Below the pieces are notes generated by a model that was not told the origin of the DNA, searched no databases, and saw only the letters and a list, made by a program, of their open reading frames with translations. Below are positions 1,303 to 64,000 of a DNA stretch of 64,000 bases, one piece after another. How positions within the stretch are numbered: the first letter of the stretch is position 1; each line of letters opens with the position of its first letter. The position numbers and the translations under genes are program-made. Origin of the DNA: Eledone cirrhosa (lineage: Eukaryota); the NCBI GenBank assembly GCA_964016885.1, contig OZ024740.1, forward strand, positions 213,528,001-213,592,000. Direction: 5' to 3'.

Positions 1303-1582
1303 TTGATCATGCTTTTATATTTAAATTTATTTCATTCCTTGTATTTTGATCATGCTTTATTTTTATTTTTATTTTTTTCATTCGCACCGTTTCCTTTCGC
1401 TATATGTCTCTCCACCACTCCCCTACACACCCTTTGAACTCTGTTCCCACACACTTCTCACCTGAGGAATGGCTTATGCCCGAAACGTCGTCCCCCACCA
1501 ACACCCCACTCTCCAGAGCGTGAAATTAATAAACATTCGTTGTACTGCCTCTCTGTTTTGTCCCTGTTCAAATTTTTCCATT
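1303..1582 (+). mobile_element. Dispersed ~280-bp repeat with a hammerhead-like core (Penelope pLTR-like); second copy at 11205-11498
   Basis: Near-identical to 11205-11498; contains CTGAGGA-ATGGCTTATGCCC-GAAA-CGTC at 1462-1489. Confidence 0.6.
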
Positions 1583-2125: not shown

Positions 2126-2262
2126 CAGCTTCCTGAAGATTTCATCTGAATGAAACAGTACTAGTCCCGTAGAAGCTCCTTCTATAAAATAAAAAATGTT
2201 TACTCTGCCATGTATTGAGTACCTTACTTACTGTGGTTATCCCCAACTCAACCCGGGACCTA
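2126..2262 (+). mobile_element. Short repeat with a hammerhead-like core, same family as 25259-25390 and 25471-25600
   Basis: CTGAAGA-T-TTC ATCT GAA-T-GAAAC-AGTACTA-GTC, followed by the shared downstream block atgtattgagtac...ttactgtggtta. Confidence 0.55.
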
Positions 2263-5061: not shown

Positions 5062-5102
5062 CTCTGTACTAGTTTCAAGCTTATTAGCTATCGTCAGCAA
5101 CG
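5062..5102 (-). ncRNA. Minimal type-I hammerhead ribozyme motif
   Basis: Minus strand reads CGTTG-CTGACGA-T-AGCT AATA AGCT-T-GAAA-CTAG-TA-CAGAG; palindromic stem III ACTAGT, GUA site, weak stem I. Confidence 0.6.
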
Positions 5103-5298: not shown

Positions 5299-7371
<2,073 letters not shown>

Positions 7372-7934: not shown

Positions 7935-10355
7935 TTGCAACACAAACTTCCAGAAACCTGCCAATCACCTAATAACCTACAAATCTGGCGAGCACATAAG
8001 CCAGATTGACTTCTTACTAGTTAGGCAGCGGGACAGGCAGATAGTGTCTAACACCAAGGCATACCCTGGGGAAGAATGTACCCCACAGCATAGGTTAGTC
8101 ATTAGTGTTATCTCAGTAAGCAAGAGATGGAATGAAACATACAGGAAGGTGTGGAGAAGAAAGGTCTGGAAACAAAAAGACCTTTCACTAAAATACAAAT
8201 TTAGGAAAGCCCTTCAAGATGTGTATGACGAAAAAGAAGACGTTTTAGAGACGTATGACATAGATAATAACTGGAATTTCTTACGTGACAACTTGCTGCA
8301 GGCTACTGATGAAACTTGTGGCTGGAGCAGAGCTCCAACCAGACAGAGAGTGACCTGGTGGTGGAACAGCACAGTAGATAAGGCCATTAGAGACAAAAGA
8401 CTAGCATGGAAGGCTTGGAAAAAGGGTGGGAGTAGGGAAGAATATACAGCCGCTAAGAGAGAAGTTAGACGTCAGGTGTACTTAACATGCAGGGAGGCTG
8501 AGAGTAGGAGGTTTGCCAATGTTCTGCGACGGGAAAATCAGAGGTGTGCGGTGTTCCACATTGCAAGGCAGTGTGTCAATGCAAATCAGGATGTTGTTGG
8601 AGATAAATGTGTCCGGGATGATCCCGGTGTACTTAGTGTCACGAATGATCAGAAAAAGAAGGCCTGGAAATGTCATTATGAGAGACTGATGAATGTGGAG
8701 AACGAATGGGAGAGAGAGAAATTACCCTTAGTAGATCCGACAGAGGGACCAGCTATTGAGATTGACGAATATAGGGTCTAAGAGGCGATTAAGGAAATGA
8801 AAAATGGTAAGGCTGCTGGACCATCGGGAATAGTTGCTGAGATGCTGAAGGCATCAGGGGACGTAGGCACTAAACTGGTTGCACGCATCATCAATCAGGC
8901 TATATTTGGTGGTGTCATACCCAAAGACTGGTGCAGCAGTATTCTCATAAATTGCTACAAAGGTAAAGGGGATGCTCTGGAGAGGAGCAATTATAGGGGT
9001 ATAAAACTGATGGATCAGGTTATGAAAGTGGCAGAAAGGATATTAGCACAACTAATTAGAGAAAGGGTCAAACTAGATGAGATACAGTTTGGTTTTGTGC
9101 CTGGGAAGAGTACAACAGATGCCCTCTTCTTGGTGAGACAATTGCAAGAGAGGTTCTTAGAGAAAAATAAGCCACTATACTTAGCCTTTGTTGACCTAGA
9201 GAAGGCCTTTGTTAGGGTACCCCGATCTGTCATCTGGTGGTCCATAAGGAAACTAGGTGTTGAGGAATGGCTTGTGAGGACAGTGCAAACTTTGTACTGA
9301 GGTACTGTCAGTAAAGTCAGTACAAGTAGGAGTACATCAAGGTTCGGTCCTCAGCCCGCTCTTGCTCATTATAGTCCTCCAAGCTATAACAGAGGAGTTT
9401 AAGACTGGCTGTCCATGGGAACTCCTCTATGCTGACGATCTGGTTCTTATAGCAGAATCAGTAGAGGAGCTAGAGAATAAATTCTGGCTATGGAAACAGC
9501 AGTTGGAAGCAAGAGGACTGAGAGTGAACCTAGCTAAAACAAAAGTGTTTATGAGTAGAAAAGAGGACAAAACTCTGATTCCGTCAGGGAAGTGGCCATG
9601 TTCGATATGCAGAAAAGGAACTGGCATAAATTCTATAAAATACACACAATGCAGATCCTGGGTACACACAAGAGATGTAGCAGCATAGCAGGCAAACTAA
9701 CAGGTAGGGAGAAATATGTATGCAGTAGATGTACAGGGAAATTAGACAGTACAAGTCGCATTGATAGACACATTTTTCAAATGCAGGAGGGTGCTATAGA
9801 AGTGGTGGATAGCTTCCGGTACCTAGGAGATCAGATTAGCATGGGAGGAGGGTGTTCCGAGGCCATAGTATCTAGAATAAGGACGGGTTGGAAGAAGTTT
9901 AGGGAGTTGCTTCCTCTGTTGACGAAGAAGGGTTTCTCCTTGCGTTCGAAAGGGCGGTTGTATGATGCCTGTGTGAGGAGTGCGATGCTGCATGGTAGTG
10001 AGACGTGGGCAGCAACTGCAGAGGATGTGCGACGGCTGGAGAGAAATGAGGCAAGCATGCTCCGTTGGATGTGCAGTGTAAATGTGCGTGAACGACCCAG
10101 CATGAATGTGTTGAGAGAGAAACTGTGTCTGAGAGGGATAGAATGTAGTGTACGGGAGAGGAGATTGAGGTGGTATGGACATGTGATGCGCATGGAGGAT
10201 GACCGATGGGTGAAGAAGTGCCAGGAAATGCCAGTTGAAGGAAGACGTGGTAGATGTAGACCACGAAAAACATGGGCGGAGGTGGTGAGAACAGACATCA
10301 GATCGTTGAAGCTCACGGTGGAGATGACGTAAAGTGATGATGATGATGATGATGA
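7935..10355 (+). mobile_element. Degenerate RTE LINE of a second subfamily (end of AP endonuclease, RT, finger)
   Basis: SQIDFLL, QHRLV, KAAGPSGI, YADD, FRYLGD, LHGSETW motifs; frameshifts and stops; (ATG)n tail directly after the ORF. Confidence 0.93.
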
Positions 10356-11204: not shown

Positions 11205-11603
<399 letters not shown>

Positions 11604-11632: not shown

Positions 11633-12720
11633 TAACTAAGAACATAGATTTTACATGTGGCCGGTGCTCTGGTGCAATAAGTAGCAGCAAGTGCCCACAA
11701 AATACTAGCTCTTTCAATTGCGCAGAGGGTTCTATAGAAATAGTGGACAGCTTCCGTTACCTGGGCGATAAAATCAGCAGTGGGGGAGGGTGCTCTGAAA
11801 GTACTGTAGCTAGAGTCAGAACTGGTTGGAAAAAGTTCAGAGAGCTTATACCACTATTAGCTGCTAAAGGGTTCTCCCTAAAAATGAAAGGCAGGTTGTA
11901 CGATGCCTGCATACGAACAGCAATGCTGCATGGCAGTGAGACCTGGGCATTGTGTGCAGAGGATATACGCAGACTAGAGAGGAACGAAGCTTGCATGCTC
12001 CGCTGGATGTGTAACAGTAATATACGTGAACGGCAAAGCATAAACGAACTAAGGAAAAAATTAGAGATAAGAGGGATCAGATGTTGTTTACTCGAGAGAA
12101 GGCTACGTTGGTATGGACACGTGATGCGCATGAAAGTCGATAGCTGTATAACAAAGTGCAGGGCAATAAAGATAGACGGTAGTCACGGAATAGGCAGACC
12201 TAGAAAAACCTGGGACGAGCTGATAAACTCCGACATCACACACTTACACCTCTCCAAGACAATGTCACTGGACCGAGACCTTTGGCGGTACTCAGTAACA
12301 GAGAAGACCCGCCTTACCTAAATATATAGTAAAACCTACGCCAGCCAGTAGGCATCTCTAACAAAATACACCCTGTCCCACCACCATCACCCCCACCCCA
12401 TCCACACCACCCCGTTCTATGTAAAGCTATGTTGGTGCCGCGCCATCGAGGCCGAAACAAATGAGATCGTGTAGGTGTCACGACAAAAAAACACACAGTC
12501 CACGCTGTAATGTGGCCGTGTAGGCAACACGGTAAAAACCTCCCAGACCCACACTGTAAATGTGGTTGGTGTTAGGAAGGGCATCCAACTGTAGAAAACC
12601 TGCCAGACAGTCCTATGCGAGCAAGACAATCACTCTTGCCTCAAGTGGGACTACCCCCGTCCAAACCCATGCAAGCGTGGAACACGGACGTTAAACGTTG
12701 ATGATGATGATGATGATGAT
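11633..12720 (+). mobile_element. RTE LINE 3' fragment with open RT C-terminus and full 3' UTR
   Basis: [11 protein letters not shown]...FRYLGD...GRPRKTW...EKTRLT, then UTR and (ATG)n. Confidence 0.92.
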
Positions 12721-14789: not shown

Positions 14790-15552
14790 ATACTTGGCGA
14801 GGGTCATATTTGTGTAATAATATTGCCAGAATTAATAACATAACACACTCACTGTTTGGTTGGTTTTCGCTTCTGTGTCTTTTATATCGGTTAATTTAAT
14901 TTATTCGGTCCTCAATGTTACCATTGACTGACCAATGGTCAAAAATACAGATATAATATAGACACAAACACATATATATATAGTCTAACAAAGTTCTTTC
15001 ATTGCACATCTGCAACATCGTCAGTGGTGTTATTATGTTTCCTCCTTTTGTATTGTACGCCATCTTTATTTAGTCTGTTTATTTATTTATTTATTTTTTT
15101 TTGTTGTCTTCTCTGTGCATGCGTTTGCGTGTATGTATAGTGTTTGATGTGTGTTCGTGTTTGGGTGACTGTGTATTGGTTATTGTATTCTATCTTAGTT
15201 TACTAGTATGTGTTTATATGTGTTTGTTGTTATTGTGCTTGTGCATGTATTTATTTATTTATACTTCTCTTAGGTCAGTATTGTTTGTTTGGGTGTAGTT
15301 GTTATTCCATTCATTTTTTCTGTTTAGCCTTGGCCTTCTAAGTTCTATTTCACTGGCCTCTCTGAGTTGCCTATCTGCTGGGTCATTTCTATGTTTAGAT
15401 ATTATTCTAATTTCTATGTTGTCTATGTTACCGTCGTGTTGTTGTCTGACATGTTTGTATAGTACTGAAACCAACCAAACAGTGAGTGTGTTCTGTTATT
15501 AATTCTGGCAATATTATGACACAAATATGACCCTCCCCAAGTATAACAATAT
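14783..15552 (-). mobile_element. 5'-truncated Penelope-like retroelement: GIY-YIG C-terminus, pLTR with hammerhead, inverted terminal duplication
   Basis: SVLYKHVRQQH...RQLREASEI...PRLNRKNEW (15300-15470, - strand); hammerhead at 14986-15030; ~85-bp inverted repeats at 14783-14868 and 15467-15552. Confidence 0.78.
14986..15030 (-). ncRNA. Minimal hammerhead motif in the Penelope pLTR
   Basis: CA-CTGACGA-T-GTTGCA GATG TGCAAT-GAAA-GAAC-TT-TG; short stem I. Confidence 0.65.
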
Positions 15553-15829: not shown

Positions 15830-16570
15830 TAAAAATGAAAGGCAGGTTGTACGATGCCTGCATACGAACAGCAATGTTGCACGGCAGTGAGACCTGGGCA
15901 TTGTGTGCAGAGGATATACGCAGACTAGAGAGAAACGAAGCTTGCATGCTCCGCTGGATGTGTAATAGTAATATACGTGAACGGCAAAGCATAAACGAAC
16001 TAAGGAAAAAATTAGAAATAAGAGGGATCAGATGTTGTTTACTCGAGAGAAGGCTACGTTGGTATGGACACGTGATGCACATGAAGGACGATAGCTGTAT
16101 AACAAAGTGCAGGGCAATAAAGATAGACGGTAGCCACGAAATAGGCAGACCCAGAAAAACCTGGGACGAGCTGATAAATTCCGACCTCACACACTTACAC
16201 CTCTCCAAGACAATGTCACTGGACCGAGACCTTTGGCGGTACTCAGTAATAGAGAAGACCCGCCTTACCTAAATACAAAGTAAAACCTACTACAGTCAGT
16301 AGGCATCACTAACAAAATACACCCCCACCCCACCCCATCCACACCGCCCCTTTCAATGTAAAGTTATGTTGGTGCCACAACATCCAGGCCGAAACAAATG
16401 AGATCGTGTAGGTGTCACGTCAAAAAAACACACAGTTCACGCTGTAATGTGGCCGTGTAGGCAACACGGTAAAAACCTCCCAGACCCACACTGTAAATGT
16501 GGTTGGTGTTAGGAAGGGCATCCAGCTGTAGAAAACACGCCAGATAGTCCTATGCGAGCAAAATAACCAC
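15830..16570 (+). mobile_element. RTE LINE 3' fragment
   Basis: MKGRLYDAC...EKTRLT plus 3' UTR; highly similar to 11880-12630. Confidence 0.9.
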
Positions 16571-16654
16571 ACATCAATCTAAAACTACTTTTCATATGTT
16601 GATTTAAAACTGCACTATCCACAAGTGTTTTTTAACCTTCATATCATGTCTTCC

Positions 16655-16725
16655 TATTTTATCTGATGAAAACACAAATGTTATTGCATGATGATATTTG
16701 TTTTTGAAATGCGCATAATAAAATA
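16655..16725 (+). ncRNA. Intact type-I hammerhead ribozyme motif
   Basis: TATTTTAT-CTGATGA-[~15-bp stem II]-GAAA-TGCGCA-TA-ATAAAATA; perfect 8-bp stem I, palindromic ATGCGCAT, AUA site, predicted cut after 16717. Confidence 0.82.
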
Positions 16726-16911
16726 CATGGAACTCTTTTAACCATCTTTTGATCTTATATATTATGTATACTCCAGTCCTACAAACTGTAGAGTGCTTCT
16801 TATCCGATATCTGCATTGCTTTATTGTACTACAATAAAACTCACCTCCTACATATATATATATATATAAACAATGAGTTATATGGTTTGTTGATTATTCA
16901 ACCAAGTTAAA

Positions 16912-17022
16912 TTTACAACAGTTTAGAAGCACTCTACAAAATTTATCTGGAGTATCATTAATATTAACAATATTAATGATACTCCAGATAAATTTTGTAG
17001 AGTGCTTCTAAACTGTTGTAAA
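16912..17022. repeat. Perfect hairpin, 54-bp arms and 3-nt loop
   Basis: 16912-16965 is the exact reverse complement of 16969-17022. Confidence 0.93.
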
Positions 17023-17062
17023 CAATATTAATAAATGGAAAATATCTTTACAAAACCATATT

Positions 17063-17123
17063 TATTTTATTATACGTATTTCAAGGGAACTAACATTTAA
17101 GAATGCTTTCATCAGATAAAATA
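17063..17123 (-). ncRNA. Type-I hammerhead ribozyme motif, paralogue of 16655-16725
   Basis: TATTTTAT-CTGATGA-AAG...CTT-GAAA-TACGTA-TA-ATAAAATA; palindromic ATACGTAT. Confidence 0.78.
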
Positions 17124-17189
17124 TAATATTTGGTGTTAAGATAGTGACATACCTTAATGGTATAAGCCCACCTTCAGTGGGCTTATATC

Positions 17190-17451
17190 ATCTTGTTTTT
17201 TCAAGATGGCATAGGACAGAACAAAGGAGAGGCACAAAAACAAAGAAAAGAATCCCCAGTGACTGAAGAGGTCACAGAATGTGTGACGAAAGAACTTTGA
17301 CAATATATAAACAATCATCTGGTTGTGGAACCAACCAACCGGAAATTTATAAATTCCTAAATTTATAAATTTATTATAATACATTGAAGTGAAAGCAACT
17401 GGTGCGTGTGTTTTCTTATTGGCAACATGACCCTCCCAAAGTATAACAATA
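17190..17451 (+). mobile_element. Non-autonomous pLTR-like element with a hammerhead at 17258-17302
   Basis: CTGAAGA-G-GTCACA GAATG TGTGAC-GAAA-GAAC-TT-TGACA; ends gaccctcccaaagtataacaata, like the Penelope terminus at 15529-15551. Confidence 0.72.
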
Positions 17452-17574
17452 TATATATAAATATATATATATATATGAAGTATTTCCGTAGAAAACGTAA
17501 AGTAAGGAAGAGTGCTCTATGAGTGCTCTACAGAGCTATTTAATGATGTTTATTACATAATTATATATATATAT

Positions 17575-18647
17575 ACTAGCAGCAGGACCCAGCGTTGCAC
17601 AGGGTAGGAAACGTGAAATAGCTATTTAATGATGTTTATTACATAATTATATATATATATACTAGCAGCAGGACCCAGCGTTGCACAGGGTAGGAAACGT
17701 GAAATAGCAACATGCATATGCAAAGATTGAGGAATGTAGCTGTGTACTTTTTGAATTCCCTTATTCTCAGGGAATGATTGTTCATCTGCTGGAAATGTAG
17801 AACACCAGCAGGCCCGAATCGTGAAATATCTGTATGCATGTGCAAAATTTGAAGAAAATCAGCTGGATACTCTTTAAGCGTACTAAATCTTAGAGTATGA
17901 TTTTTCTTCCATTTGGAGAAAATCACACTGCGTTTACACAGCAAAAAAGGTGTGACAAAAGGGGTCACCGCGGAATTAGCACAACTGCTGTTCGGCGTAC
18001 TTGCACAGGGCGTTCATATACTGCAGCATAGGTGCAACAAAAGGGGTCTTAGTAGAAGTAGCACAGACTTGAGTTTTACAGTGTCAATAACACGGCAATG
18101 TACACAGGGCCCGGATTTGCGCGTGATGAAAGCATGAAGCGTCAACAGGGCGCCGACAAACATTTTAAGGTCCTCCTCATTTCCTCAATCGCCCGAAAAT
18201 GATCCTGCTTAAAAGTAAGTATGTGTTGTGTCCTCTGTTAAATAAACCAAATTTTTAACGAAATATTATATGCTACTTACGATGTTTAAGTAGCGTTTAT
18301 ATTGAAAATGAAATTGGCATGTAATGCCCAATGCTAAATCGTAAATTTCCTAGAAACGATTAATGGAATCGGAATTTTTTTTGTCCACAGCAATGTGAAG
18401 GGACTAACTAATGTGTGCTGCAAATTTTGAGGAAATTGGCTGGATTATCGGCTGCCTAAAAAATGCGGTCTTTCGCCTAATGCCTAGGGCAGAAAAAGTC
18501 TTTCGCCTAGGGCAGAAAAAGTTAAAATTGTTTTAGCCCATTGCACTTCAACAAATATAAGTAACGCATGTGTAAAGTTTGAAAAAAATCGGTCAGGTAC
18601 TTCTCGAGTTTTAGGGATTTACACAGACAGACAGACATCCTCTGTTT

Positions 18648-19435: not shown

Positions 19436-19622
19436 AGAGAGAAAGGACCATATATCTTATGAGAATACAGTTATTTGGTATATATACAGAGCACATATAT
19501 CAAGGCGGAATATGTACTTTAGATGGATTCCATCTAAAGTACATATTCCTCCTCGATATATGTGTTCTGTATATATACCAAATAACTGTGTATTCTCATA
19601 AGATATATGGTCCTTTCTCTCT
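19436..19622. repeat. Near-perfect ~92-bp-arm hairpin
   Basis: Centre agatgga-t-tccatct at 19521-19535; a few mismatches and one 2-nt indel. Confidence 0.92.
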
Positions 19623-25005: not shown

Positions 25006-25091
25006 GGTCTACTCCAGATGAGTTTAACTCTTCCACGCTGTGATATATATATATCACAGCGTGGAAGAGTTAAATTCAGCTGGAGTAGACC
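25006..25091. repeat. ~40-bp-arm hairpin centred on (AT)n
   Basis: ggtctactccag...ccacgctgtgatat / atatcacagcgtgg...ctggagtagacc. Confidence 0.88.
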
Positions 25092-25182: not shown

Positions 25183-25600
25183 TAGAACTGTTTCGTTTGT
25201 ATGAAATCATCAGATATATATATAGAACTGTTTCGTTTGTATGAAATCATCAGGAATGCCCTAATGATTTCATACGAATGAAACAGTTCTAGTCATGTAA
25301 AAGCCATTTCTATATTAAATAATGTTTACACCCTACTAATGTATTGAGTACCCTTTTTAACAGTCGCTACCTCCGATTTTACTCGGGATCTATATATCTA
25401 TCTATATGAGAGAGAGAAATGATTTCTACAGGACTAGAACGGTTTCATTCGAAGGAAATCATCAGGAAAGCCCTGATGATGATTTCCTTCAAATGAAACA
25501 GTTCTAGCCCTGTAGAAGCCATTTCTATATTAAAAATGTATATTCTGCTATGTATTAAGTACTTTACTTACTGTGGTTACCCCCGATTGAACACAGAATA
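25183..25600. mobile_element. Two fold-back units, each made of head-to-head hammerhead-like cores
   Basis: Hairpins at 25223-25291 and 25424-25517; arms read CT(G/A)ATGA-T-TTC....(G/A)AA(T/C)-GAAAC-(A/C)GTTCTA. Confidence 0.6.
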
Positions 25601-45500: not shown

Positions 45501-47845
45501 GGTCACAACACTAAAATATTGTTTGTTCCACAACATCAGATCATCTGGTACTGATATCATTAGTCACAACACTAAAATATTGTTTGTTCCACATCAGATC
45601 ATCTGGTACTGATATTATTAGTCACAACACTAAAATATTGTTTGTTCCACATCAGATCATCTGGTACTGATATCATTGGTCAAAACACTAAAATATTGTT
45701 TGTTCCACATCAGATCATCTGGTACTGATATCATTAGTCACAACACTAAAATATTGTTTGTTCCACATCAGAACATCTGGTACTGATATCATTAGTCACA
45801 ACACTAAAATATTGTTCCACATCAGATCATCTGGTACTGATATTATTAGTCACAACACTAAAATATTGTTTGTTCCACATCAGATCATCTGGTACTGATA
45901 TCATTAGTCACAACACTTAAATATTGTTTGTTCCACATCAGATCATCTGGTACTGATATTATTAGTCACAACACTTAAATATTGTTTGTTCCACTTCAGA
46001 TCATCTGGTACTGATATTATTAGTCACACCACTAAAATATTGTTTGTTCCACATCAGAACATCTGGTACTGATATTATTAGTCACAACACTTAAATATTG
46101 TTTGTTCCACATCAGATCATCTGGTACTGATATCATTAGTCACAACACTAAAATATTGTTTGTTCCACATCAGAACATCTGGTACTGATATCATTAGTCA
46201 CAACACTAAAATATTGTTCCACATCAGATCATCTGGTACTGATATTATTAGTCACAACACTAAAATATTGTTTGTTCCACATCAGAACATCTGGTACTGA
46301 TATCATTAGTCACAACACTTAAATATTGTTTGTTCCACATCAGATCATCTGGTACTGATATTATTAGTCACAACACTTAAATATTGTTTGTTCCACATCA
46401 GATCATCTGGTACTGATATCATTAGTCACACCACTAAAATATTGTTTGTTCCACATCAGATCATCTGGTACTGATATTATTAGTCACACCACTAAAATAT
46501 TGTTTGTTCCACATCAGATCATCTGGTACTGATATCATTAGTCACACCACTAAAATATTGTTTGTTCCACATCAGATCATCTGGTACTGATATCATTGGT
46601 CACAACACTAAAATATTGTTTGTTCCACAACATCAGATCATCTCGTACTGTAGTCACAACACTAAAATATTGTTTGTTCCACAACATCAGATCATCTCGT
46701 ACTGTAGTCACGACACTTAAATATTGTTTGTTCCACAACATCAGATCATCTGGTACTGTAGTCACGACACTAAAATATTATTTGTTCCACAACATCAGAT
46801 CATCTGGTACTGTAGTCACGACACTTAAATATTGTTTGTTCCACAACATCAGATCATCTGGTACTGTAGTCACGACACTAAAATATTGTTTGTTCCACAA
46901 CATCAGATCATCTCGTACTGTAGTCACGACACTAAAATATTGTTTGTTCCACAACATCAGATCATCTCGTACTGTAGTCACGACACTAAAATATTGTTTG
47001 TTCCACAACATCAGATCATCTCGTACTGTAGTCACGACACTAAAATATTGTTTGTTCCACAACATCAGATCATCTCGTACTGTAGTCACGACACTAAAAT
47101 ATTGTTTGTTCCACAACATCAGATCATCTGGTACTGTAGTCACGACACTAAAATATTATTTGTTCCACAACATCAGATCATCTGGTACTGTAGTCACGAC
47201 ACTAAAATATTGTTTGTTCCACAACATCAGATCATCTCGTACTGTAGTCACGACACTAAAATATTGTTTGTTCCACAACATCAGATCATCTCGTACTGTA
47301 GTCACGACACTAAAATATTGTTTGTTCCACAACATCAGATCATCTCGTACTGTAGTCACGACACTAAAATATTGTTTGTTCCACAACATCAGATCATCTC
47401 GTACTGTAGTCACGACACTAAAATATTGTTTGTTCCACAACATCAGATCATCTCGTACTGTAGTCACGACACTAAAATATTGTTTGTTCCACAACATCAG
47501 ATCATCTTGTACTGTAGTCACGACACTAAAATATTGTTTGTTCCACAACATCAGATCATCTCGTACTGTAGTCACGACACTAAAATATTGTTTGTTCCAC
47601 AACATCAGATCATCTCGTACTGTAGTCACGACACTAAAATATTGTTTGTTCCACAACATCAGATCATCTCGTACTGTAGTCACGACACTAAAATATTGTT
47701 TGTTCCACAACATCAGATCATCTCGTACTGTAGTCACGACACTAAAATATTGTTTGTTCCACAACATCAGATCATCTTGTACTGTAGTCACGACACTAAA
47801 ATATTGTTTGTTCCACAACATCAGACCATCTAGTACTGATATTAT
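42530..47845. repeat. 5.3-kb intronic satellite: about 70 copies of 58 bp, then about 23 copies of a derived 54-bp unit
   Basis: Unit ccacatcagatcatctggtactgatatcattagtcacaacactaaaatattgtttgtt; switch to the 54-mer near 46620. Confidence 0.96.
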
Positions 47846-48656
47846 TATTTTCCCAGCTACTTTCAAAATATTGGTTTGTTTACTGTCATTAATAGGTATT
47901 GCATCCTCTATTCATGTTACATGTGAGTGTTTTGTTAGCATTTTTATATTTATTTGATGAAAGTAATTAATCTGACCTCTATACTCGCGTTCAGATTTAG
48001 TATTCTTACTCTTTTCTATCATTAATCTTTTGTTGTTTTCCCCTAGACTGTCGGTGTCATCAAGTATATATTACCATATTTAGTGCTATATGTTTTCCCT
48101 AGACTGTCGGTGTCATCAAGTATATTACCATATTTAGTGCTATATGTTTTCTCTAGACTGTGTCAGTGCCATCAACTATATTACTATATTTGGTGCTATG
48201 TTTTCCCTAGACTGTGTCTGTCATCAACTATATTACTATATTTGATGCTATATATATATATGAACCCTTTTCTCCCCTTCAAAATGGCTAAAAACATATC
48301 ACCCCCAGTCATATATGTGAACTATAGTAGGCTAATATTTTGTTAATATTGACTGCTGAAGCAGTGAGTGGGGTGTTATCGATCTGGAGTTCCTTCATGC
48401 CATCAAATATGGTAATTATATTTCTTTTTGATACTATGTCATCTGAGACCACTTCTGGTTCTATGTAACAAAACTTCTCATTTTAAAGTGTTCATATTTA
48501 AGTTAAAATCTCCCAACATAATTTTATGTAAAACTCTTTTATATACTAAACTTTAGCTTACTGATTAAATCCCTCTGAATTTTTGATTTTCAAAATTAAT
48601 TTTTGCTTAACAGTTAGAATATTATCTTTTTCTTTTTTTCTTCATTTAATATTTAA

Positions 48657-57472: not shown

Positions 57473-57530
57473 GAATGATTTACCTGATGAAGGGCCAATT
57501 AGGTCCGAAAATCTATTAATGGTATTCATC
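57473..57530 (+). ncRNA. Degenerate hammerhead-like motif
   Basis: TAC-CTGATGA-A-GGGCC AATTA GGTCC-GAAA-ATCTATTA-ATG-GTA; junction spacing is imperfect. Confidence 0.45.
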
Positions 57531-62282: not shown

Positions 62283-62615
62283 TGCGGAGATTGGAGATCA
62301 GAGAGTCACTCCAAGTAGAGTCACTACATCTCAGAGTTGAGAGATCACAGATCTGATATTAAGGGCATGTGGTTAGAATGTCTCAGGAATGAATCGCTGG
62401 ACAGAGTTTAAGGGCGAAACCAACCGACAGGAGACTCAGAGGTAGACCCTGAGCAAGATGGTTGAATAACATCTATGAGCTTGGTTGGCCTCGCTTGGGG
62501 ATGCAACCGGATCAGTTGGAGATGGTTGCTTCTGACAGGATCCGCTGGAAGGAGTGTTTCAAGACTCCCCCCACCCCCACACCTACCCTCAGGAATAAAT
62601 GGGCGAAGAAGAAGC
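62283..62615 (+). mobile_element. 3' end of the third RTE-like family
   Basis: Homologous to 60715-61020. Confidence 0.8.
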
Positions 62616-62640
62616 AGAAGACTTCAGTAAAATATGAGTG

Positions 62641-64000
62641 CAGACAATCCGAACTTATACGGAAGGGAGCACAGACAGTCGGAACATATACGGAAGGGAG
62701 CACAGACAGTCGGAACTTATACGGAAGGGAGCACAGACAGTCGGAACATATAGGGAAGGGAGCACAGTCAGTCGGAACATATACGGAAGGGAGCACAGAC
62801 AGTCGGAACTTATACGGAAGGGAGCACAGACAGTCGGAACATATAGGGAAGGGAGCACAGACAGTCGGAACTTATACGGAAGGGAGCACAGACAGTCGGA
62901 ACTTATACGGAAGGGAGCACAGACAGTCGGAACTTATACGGAAGGGAGCACAGACAGTCGGAACATATACGGAAGGGAGCACAGACAGTCGGAACATATA
63001 GGGAAGGGAGCACAGACAGTCGGAACATATAGGGAAGGGAGCACAGTCAGTCGGAACATATAGGGAAGGGAGCACAGACAGTCGGAACTTATACGGAAGG
63101 GAGCACAGACAGTCGGAACTTATACGGAAGGGAGCACAGACAGTCGGAACATATACGGAAGGGAGCACACACAGTCGGAACTTATACGGAAGGGAGCACA
63201 GACAGTCGGAACATATACGGAAGGGAGCACAGACAGTCGGAACTTATAGGGAAGGGAGCACAGACAGTCGGAACTTATACGGAAGGGAGCACAGACAGTC
63301 GGAACATATAGGGAAGGGAGCACAGACAGTCGGAACTTATACGGAAGGGAGCACAGACAGTCGGAACATATACGGAAGGGAGCACAGACAGTCGGAACTT
63401 ATACGGAAGGGAGCACAGACAGTCGGAACTTATACGGAAGGGAGCACAGACAGTCGGAACATATAGGGAAGGGAGCACAGACAGTCGGAACATATACGGA
63501 AGGGAGCACAGACAGTCGGAACTTATACGGAAGGGAGCACAGACAGTCGGAACATATACGGAAGGGAGCACACACAGTCGGAACTTATACGGAAGGGAGC
63601 ACAGACAGTCGGAACTTATACGGAAGGGAGCACACACAGTCGGAACATATAGGGAAGGGAGCACAGACAGTCGGAACTTATACGGAAGGGAGCACACACA
63701 GTCGGAACATATACGGAAGGGAGCACAGACAGTCGGAACTTATACGGAAGGGAGCACAGACAGTCGGAACATATACGGAAGGGAGCACAGACAGTCGGAA
63801 CATATACGGAAGGGAGCACAGACAGTCGGAACTTATACGGAAGGGAGCACACACAGTCGGAACATATACGGAAGGGAGCACAGACAGTCGGAACTTATAC
63901 GGAAGGGAGCACAGACAGTCGGAACATATACGGAAGGGAGCACAGACAGTCGGAACTTATACGGAAGGGAGCACAGACAGTCGGAACATATACGGAAGGG
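62641..64000. repeat. 31-bp minisatellite running off the window end
   Basis: Unit cacagacagtcggaac(t/a)tata(c/g)ggaagggag, about 44 copies. Confidence 0.96.

Follow-up and report, generated by a model that had tools for sequence, protein, structure and literature searches.

Convergent hammerhead motifs around a perfect 54-bp hairpin: a probable repeat pile-up at a microsatellite

The two opposed hammerhead motifs described here and the perfect 54-bp hairpin between them are probably an ordinary pile-up of repeats, namely two insertions lying tail to tail at a microsatellite together with a young template-switch hairpin. They lie in a window (the whole stretch of DNA analysed, 64,000 nucleotides) of animal DNA, rich in repeats and by its repeat motifs probably from a cephalopod, in which the LINE frames are broken and (TA)n tracts run long; taken as a whole, the locus most likely has no function. 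A preliminary description of this DNA had proposed that transcription in either direction could yield a self-cleaved RNA carrying a dsRNA stem, and had kept two independent insertions as a fallback. It is the fallback that the data favor. The features are as follows; the (AT)n tract, the direct repeat and unit C were overlooked in the preliminary description.

16400-16572, + strand: 3' tail of an RTE-like LINE, 95% like the copies at 12464, 34672 and 23595 up to about 16570.
16573-16851, + strand: unit A, a very abundant hammerhead-bearing repeat (pseudo-LTR-like, or a 3' end); its 5' limit is approximate.
16655-16725, + strand: hammerhead A, type I, with an 8-bp stem I, a long stem II (15/16 pairs), a palindromic stem III and an AUA site.
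16768-16800, + strand: block shared with unit B, a small bulged hairpin, in a 3' portion missing from many contigs of the family.
16820-16838, + strand: A+T-rich terminal hairpin of unit A with AATAAA; its counterpart in B is at about 16887-16906.
16852-16868, no strand: (AT)n tract where unit A and unit B adjoin by their 3' ends.
16869-17163, - strand: unit B, a diverged copy of a related, less abundant repeat with its own relatives among the contigs.
16912-16965, - strand: original hairpin arm, which is B's own shared block; contigs of run X1 join it straight to 17024-17026.
16966-16977 and 17021-17032, + strand: 12-nt direct repeat, a duplication footprint.
16969-17023, + strand: 55-nt insertion, the inverted arm copy and exact reverse complement of 16912-16965; one contig omits precisely these 55 letters.
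17063-17123, - strand: hammerhead B, type I, with core and stem I intact and stem II drifted (6/11 pairs).
17161-17187, no strand: perfect 11-bp hairpin where B and C adjoin by their 5' ends; the stem can be extended to about 14 bp.
17190-17467, + strand: unit C, the third repeat with a hammerhead-like motif (core 17263-17291), which stands head to head with B and ends in (TA)n.

Both ribozymes lie at the coordinates and on the strands first reported, and they share the 8-bp stem I and the AUA site. Each contains the core CUGAUGA...GAAA with an AUA triplet, and each agrees with the definition of a type I hammerhead (CUGANGA, GAAA, NUH and three helices). A strict hammerhead descriptor matched twice in the 64-kb window, at A and at B, whereas the mean over 100 dinucleotide shuffles was 0.0 with a stem I of at least 8 and 0.01 with a stem I of at least 4. 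The predicted cut sites, after 16717 on the + strand and between 17071 and 17070 on the - strand, coincide with those claimed earlier. Stem III is palindromic in both motifs, with the sequences originally given (ATGCGCAT in A, ATACGTAT in B) and 8/8 pairs each; the dimer duplex is modeled at -10.5 and -6.5 kcal/mol, respectively, and as a monomer stem III of either motif has 2 bp only. The description of both hammerheads as intact holds for the two cores and for stem II of A but fails for stem II of B. Helix II beside the core has 15/16 pairs in A and, in symmetric register, 6/11 in B, where the hammerhead fold stands at +3.7 kcal/mol. Stem II pair 4 of A is a pyrimidine mismatch, to which the mismatch at pair 4 of B corresponds, and over the ribozyme the two are 70% identical. 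The G10.1-C11.1 pair, a hallmark of the Penelope minimal hammerhead, is absent from both motifs, which have A-U instead. Nor does the best fold of either contain an unpaired letter between A9 and 10.1, as folds without it are lower by 2.7 (A) and 3.4 (B) kcal/mol. Compared with the minimum-energy fold, the modeled hammerhead fold lies at +4.2 kcal/mol for A and +8.8 for B, and neither motif folds better than its own shuffles (z = -0.74 and -0.41). No Rfam hammerhead model reached its gathering score across the 64 kb, and none of the 19 Rfam matches at E<=10 on 16400-17400 was to a hammerhead model. The Rfam miRNA and snoRNA matches were rejected, being below gathering score.

Much of what follows depends on public contigs, which were aligned to 16570-17200 at 80% likeness for four of the 23 listed runs (X1, X5, X7 and X8), with the small-share runs X9-X19 left out. 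Matching contigs numbered 6747 in X1, 41 in X5, 42 in X7 and 33 in X8. Summed X1 depth, about 1e6 over A and 1e3-2e4 over the parts specific to B, is a sign of repetition only and not a copy number. No listed contig piece spans the whole stretch, and 16856-17009 is bare of contigs in X5 and X7 and nearly so in X8, gaps that are uninformative because the repeat at 16842-16880 was skipped and records were filtered in alignment.

Unit A begins at about 16572, where the RTE-like tail ends; the remainder of that tail, seen in other copies, is absent downstream. It is covered end to end by contigs of 4/4 runs compared, and pieces in X5, X7 and X8 differ from it by 0-2 letters in 70-141 nt. These runs are labeled as three other organisms, and the 98-100% likeness of unit A to their contig pieces could be explained by close species, by a young shared family or by mixed samples, each of which would suffice. 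The A/B family looks very abundant and common to runs of several labeled organisms. Relatives of unit B are many among X1 contigs, at 85-90% identity, with some in X5 and X8, and the B pieces listed differ from this B copy by about 10-17%. The block of the hairpin does recur 3' of the + strand ribozyme, as had been noticed, with 9/9 and 14/14 letters identical between A and B and 76% identity over 42 columns. Contigs run into (TA)n at 16770 in 61 cases in X1 and 2 in X5, and we therefore regard the shared block as an optional 3' part; by analogy it may recall the optional tail of Penelope insertions (PMC8557442, in the text available). The A+T-rich terminal hairpin of unit A was considered as a Helitron 3' end and dropped: that end motif is CTRR, and the end here is not. 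Contigs are much more numerous over the segment 17032-17076 than over the remainder of B and show a different stem II beyond 17087, and these contigs, with (TA)n ends near 17033, would on their sequences be a third, abundant subfamily with a B-like spacer.

Homology between the two units raises the question of whether A and B could be the two ends of one old insertion, a direct and an inverted pseudo-LTR that have since diverged. The two are homologous throughout, their 3' parts agreeing in 79/141 columns (56%) with the duplicated arm omitted, a score reached by 0/1000 shuffles, and an inverted copy is frequent in Penelope insertions in the portion of PMC8557442 consulted. However, A is 98-100% like pieces from other runs and 56-70% like B, and B has relatives of its own, so each is nearer to its own family. 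Furthermore, the inverted copy described lies at the 5' end and directs the 3' ends outward, whereas here the 3' ends meet. We consider a single old insertion extremely improbable. For the same reason, the tail-to-tail geometry of two separate insertions rests on the microsatellite argument, that is, that an (AT)n tract is symmetric and thus accepts an insertion in either orientation. The distance from core to tract is 189 nt in A, and 247 nt in B, or 192 nt without the 55-nt insertion. On its far side B abuts unit C, copies of which lie at 14720-14452 (95%) and 19136-18920 (76%), both on the - strand. Family C, which also has a core at 14997-15024 (-), shows one unpaired letter followed by a 6-bp stem II and, in two copies, a (TA)n end about 190 nt past the core. 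The 11-bp hairpin between B and C may have come from another short template switch, or may be the scar of a 5' inversion. A perfect tandem duplication of 86 nt lies farther on, at 17534-17705.

We also asked what the family variants say of selection. The stem differences between A and B had been taken as covariation implying selection on structure, and this stands for the repeat families but not for the composite as one unit. In the 40 of 72 variant rows listed, all seven variants in the stems of A keep pairing and none falls in the core, although this is a soft test, as A-to-G opposite U always keeps the pair. The only core variant listed for B is at N7, a free position. The two central letters of B's palindrome vary, and pairing holds if both change or if the commoner one changes alone, part of the depth at these variants coming from a more abundant relative of B. 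In stem II of B, with 5 mismatches in 11, family variants at 83, 96, 97 and 44% of X1 depth restore four pairs, the fifth mismatch being the one at pair 4, and one listed variant (26%) breaks a pair. Large families with pair-keeping changes, as is typical of Penelope-type hammerheads, are thus found. These sequence comparisons support selection on the ribozyme structure within the families. This particular copy of B looks decayed in stem II, and it may alternatively represent a distinct subfamily with another stem II fold.

The hairpin between the ribozymes is as perfect as had been claimed. Its arms, 16912-16965 and 16969-17022, form 54/54 pairs around a 3-nt loop, and 16900-17035 folds at -81.7 kcal/mol (z = -19.9); none of the Rfam miRNA matches on it attains its gathering score, and what they pick up is the perfect stem. 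Deleting 16969-17023 leaves a 9-bp hairpin around the same loop. Among the 15 joints listed (of 17, in X1), nine leave the left arm and resume at 17021-17057, omitting the right arm. Seven of these are skips of 55, 58, 62, 64, 79, 86 and 110 letters, the last without both arms as aligned, and two are strand changes, which are the one-arm form mapped the opposite way. Each is a single contig at a depth of 4.6-11.8, and these contigs are other copies or alleles, not necessarily this locus. At position 16922 a different letter makes up 97% of X1 depth, and the letter of this copy is mirrored at 17012; a letter so rare in the family, present in both arms, indicates that the arms were copied after this B copy diverged. 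Zero mismatches in 54 bp would have P <=0.003 if each arm had aged by at least 5%, an assumed rate. A template switch can produce an inverted and a direct repeat in one step (bioRxiv 10.1101/2023.04.19.537475, in the part accessible). The inverted copy with its direct repeat, the one-arm joints and the mirrored rare letter together point to a recent template-switch duplication, and the hairpin most likely arose through a recent slip in copying within a single repeat copy, and is younger than this B copy.

Two other origins of the second arm were weighed. The hairpin might be a standing feature of the B subfamily, a hairpin-bearing mobile RNA rather than something private to this locus. Contigs break at perfect palindromes, and 6981 pieces lie beyond those listed, so two-arm copies could hide among them. 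However, the nine one-arm joints, the rarity in the family of the letter mirrored at 16922/17012, and a length to (TA)n that equals that of A only without the insertion make a standing feature very unlikely. An error of assembly or a chimeric long read is, in our judgment, highly improbable. The X1 contig that omits exactly 55 letters could be this locus itself, and the best runs contain a fraction of 0.73 of the sampled words. Against this, that contig could equally be another copy or a pre-event allele, and the return after 54 nt, the 12-nt direct repeat and the 9-bp hairpin as seed fit a template switch. Read chimeras, for their part, fold back and are not known to return to the first strand. 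A recent template switch therefore remains our preferred origin of the second arm.

Could the composite nevertheless work as one RNA? It had been suggested that the ribozymes and the hairpin form one selected unit, either strand of which would give rise to an RNA that cleaves itself and offers its 54-bp stem to Dicer or ADAR. Both cores are intact and the hairpin is perfect, and hairpins born by template switch became miRNA genes in primates, according to the section of bioRxiv 10.1101/2023.04.19.537475 that we cite. In equilibrium folding models, which ignore kinetics, stem I of A has a pairing probability of 0.59-0.83 at four of five transcript lengths up to 17060 (0.11 at 16850), falling to 0.0 once the + RNA reaches 17090. 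Stem I of A is thus predicted to form before antisense B is transcribed, leaving a window for co-transcriptional cutting by A. Stem I of B reaches 0.51 at 17050, is at most 0.01 from 16870 and is 0.0 once the - RNA reaches 16740. Full read-through is accordingly predicted in both directions to pair each ribozyme with its antisense copy and abolish stem I. Each strand carries one sense ribozyme and so allows at most one cut, whereas the release of a unit would take two; a heterodimer of A and B within one molecule was rejected, one motif being antisense in any transcript. In addition, stem III is of the dimer type with no tandem partner, stem II of B has drifted, and the hairpin arose later than the B copy and is missing from the one-arm joints. 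The claim of a self-cleaved dsRNA-bearing product from either direction is not supported by these results, and a single selected unit appears most improbable.

How much cutting the motifs might do individually can be gauged from published systems. A single minimal motif showed no detectable cleavage, and dimers low cleavage, in the available part of PMC4209133, whereas axolotl motifs reached 6-22% cleavage as monomers in that of PMC7229834, by analogy with which weak cutting here may be possible. Hairpin RNA could arise if the locus is transcribed. One could also imagine a newborn hairpin-RNA gene, in which the repeat ribozyme would provide a self-cut 5' end and the template switch a 54-bp stem, and small RNAs complementary to the shared block would silence the repeat family or load the editing machinery; we hold this to be decidedly unlikely.

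For the repeat pile-up, we envisage the following history. A and B, which are repeats, would stem from Penelope-like retroelements, either as their 3'-end or pseudo-LTR units or as short non-autonomous derivatives, each with a type I hammerhead about 190 nt ahead of its (TA)n end. Cutting at AUA would occur when two head-to-tail copies in one precursor pair via stem III, and would trim the element RNA during transposition. A and B, of different subfamilies, would have been inserted separately, in opposite directions, into the same (AT)n tract. Judged against its family variants, B then drifted and probably lost stem II pairs. Finally, a template switch in replication, seeded at B's 9-bp hairpin, would have copied 54 nt backwards and returned, leaving the inverted arm and the 12-nt direct repeat that are present. 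If the + strand is transcribed, A would at best cut weakly before antisense B is made, and the product would be a 5'-OH RNA with an open 3' end carrying the hairpin.

A and B are hammerhead-bearing repeats, most likely of Penelope origin. No coding Penelope partner was found, and clade membership is therefore something we infer. No frame with RT plus GIY-YIG was found in the window, and no Penelope frame is tied to A or B: of 44 frames near hammerhead-like cores compared with Pfam, out of 60 listed, none matched, and the control for this search, two LINE frames, was matched in full (2/2, RVT_1). Truncated and solo copies are the norm for Penelope-like elements. The cores stand 189 and 192 nt ahead of (TA)n, and family contigs enter (TA)n, in line with the position near the 3' end and the (TA)n bias of such elements. 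Head-to-tail tandem units, which define non-LTR retrozymes, were not seen in the window, where A and B are single and on opposite strands, and so we do not file A and B as retrozymes. The hammerhead pattern was found 0 times in viral contigs, and the shared-block pattern 0 times in genome contigs and in viral contigs. Two metagenome-contig loci (L001 and L002, 5001-5041) do carry the hammerhead pattern. They are identical over the part viewed and belong to another family, with an AUA site, a near-palindromic stem III, a G-C closing pair, an unpaired letter after the core and repeat-like DNA; one short reading frame was seen, in L001 only.

The window holds other repeats of this kind. Bare hammerhead cores number 19 where 2.46 are expected, and a clear stem II after one unpaired letter, a Penelope hallmark, is present at 11377, 15024, 17263, 19072 and 57484. 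Further opposite-strand pairs of cores occur at 17115/17263 and 25443/25473. The second of these belongs to a nested cluster at 25191-25520, with cores at 25191-25213 (-), 25231-25253 (-), 25443-25465 (-) and 25473-25498 (+), the last two standing back to back in the manner of the inverted copies at the 5' end of Penelope insertions. This family has a relative at 2133-2155 (+), and its core layout resembles the Hydra-clade table in the part of PMC8557442 at hand. Hammerhead-like cores with a short G+C-rich stem II were seen at 1462-1485 (+), 11377-11400 (+), 57484-57510 (+) and 5073-5097 (-), those at 1462 and 11377 being copies of a single repeat that has AATAAA and (TA)n 120 nt past the core. 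A long hairpin at 19450-19606 has 78-nt arms that are 86% complementary, a 1-nt loop and a perfect 21-bp center (19507-19549), and may have arisen like the 54-bp hairpin, but earlier. A perfect 26-bp palindrome at 25023-25074 is centered on a short (AT)n, on either side of which an end of the same repeat points in the opposite direction. RVT_1 was matched in broken LINE frames at 5770-6660 and 8782-9297, the first with a PHD-like cysteine-rich stretch after the RT, and many 3' tails of this family end in (GAT)n and then (TA)n. Minisatellite arrays at 46554-47957 and 62453-64000 yield long spurious open frames.

As a composite the locus carries little weight; it shows how hammerhead repeats that favor (TA)n can pile up in both directions and mimic design. 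The hairpin has some value as a datable template-switch event and a possible proto-small-RNA locus. The design of the A/B family itself is non-standard, with an 8-bp stem I, an A-U closing pair, a long stem II mismatched at its fourth pair and a variable palindrome. We found no description of the family in the open literature; Repbase, Dfam and closed journals were outside that scope, so it may already be catalogued. Its abundance and its non-standard design make it suited to tests of dimeric hammerheads in Penelope transposition, a role called still unclear in the portion of PMC8557442 available.

The closest published systems are the hammerheads of Penelope-like elements, here compared with the accessible parts of the articles cited. 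Dual motifs on opposite strands 100-700 bp apart and a palindromic helix III have been described for them (Cervera and De la Pena 2014, PMC4209133), and the cores of A and B are about 450 bp apart. Like those metazoan motifs, A and B are of type I with a long helix II and a small palindromic helix III fit for dimers, and they share the occurrence of many sequence families per genome, mostly as solo copies, and of opposite-strand pairs. However, helix I has 8 bp rather than 4-5, and no adjacent reading frame was found. Helix II is closed by A-U rather than G-C, its fourth pair is a pyrimidine mismatch, and its best fold leaves no letter unpaired after A9. An optional 3' tail is described for Penelope-like elements as a whole (Craig et al. 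2021, PMC8557442). Hydra-clade elements in the same source resemble A and B in their (TA)n preference, in a sense hammerhead 100-200 nt before the 3' end, in a first helix II pair that is often not G-C and in a cleavage residue that is often A. One of them, Hydra-1_Obim of Octopus bimaculoides, carries its sense hammerhead some 100 nt short of the 3' end, but that motif differs from A and B in its sequence and in a helix III with a loop. The short A and B motifs were not found by a short-word search of the curated Naiad, Chlamys and Hydra sequences in the part of the PMC8557442 supplement consulted, in which line breaks can hide a match. Recently active Penelope families are described in Octopus vulgaris in the available text of PMC13282606.

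Animal non-LTR retrozymes are similar to A and B in several respects, being non-coding units of about 250-300 nt with low G+C, one type I hammerhead per unit and dispersed monomers (PMC7229834; bioRxiv 10.64898/2026.07.22.740005). The same two sources, in the parts accessible, present retrozymes as thought to derive from Penelope pseudo-LTRs, the preprint treating this derivation as that of animal retrozymes and dispersed monomers as common. Yet retrozymes are defined by head-to-tail tandems that lead to circular RNA, whereas A and B are single and stand tail to tail. With regard to the hairpin, our case differs from the template-switch hairpins described so far, as covered by the texts cited, in sitting inside a mobile repeat. 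It agrees with them in the one-step birth of a perfect stem and in the combination of an inverted and a direct repeat (bioRxiv 10.1101/2023.04.19.537475; PMC8794818).
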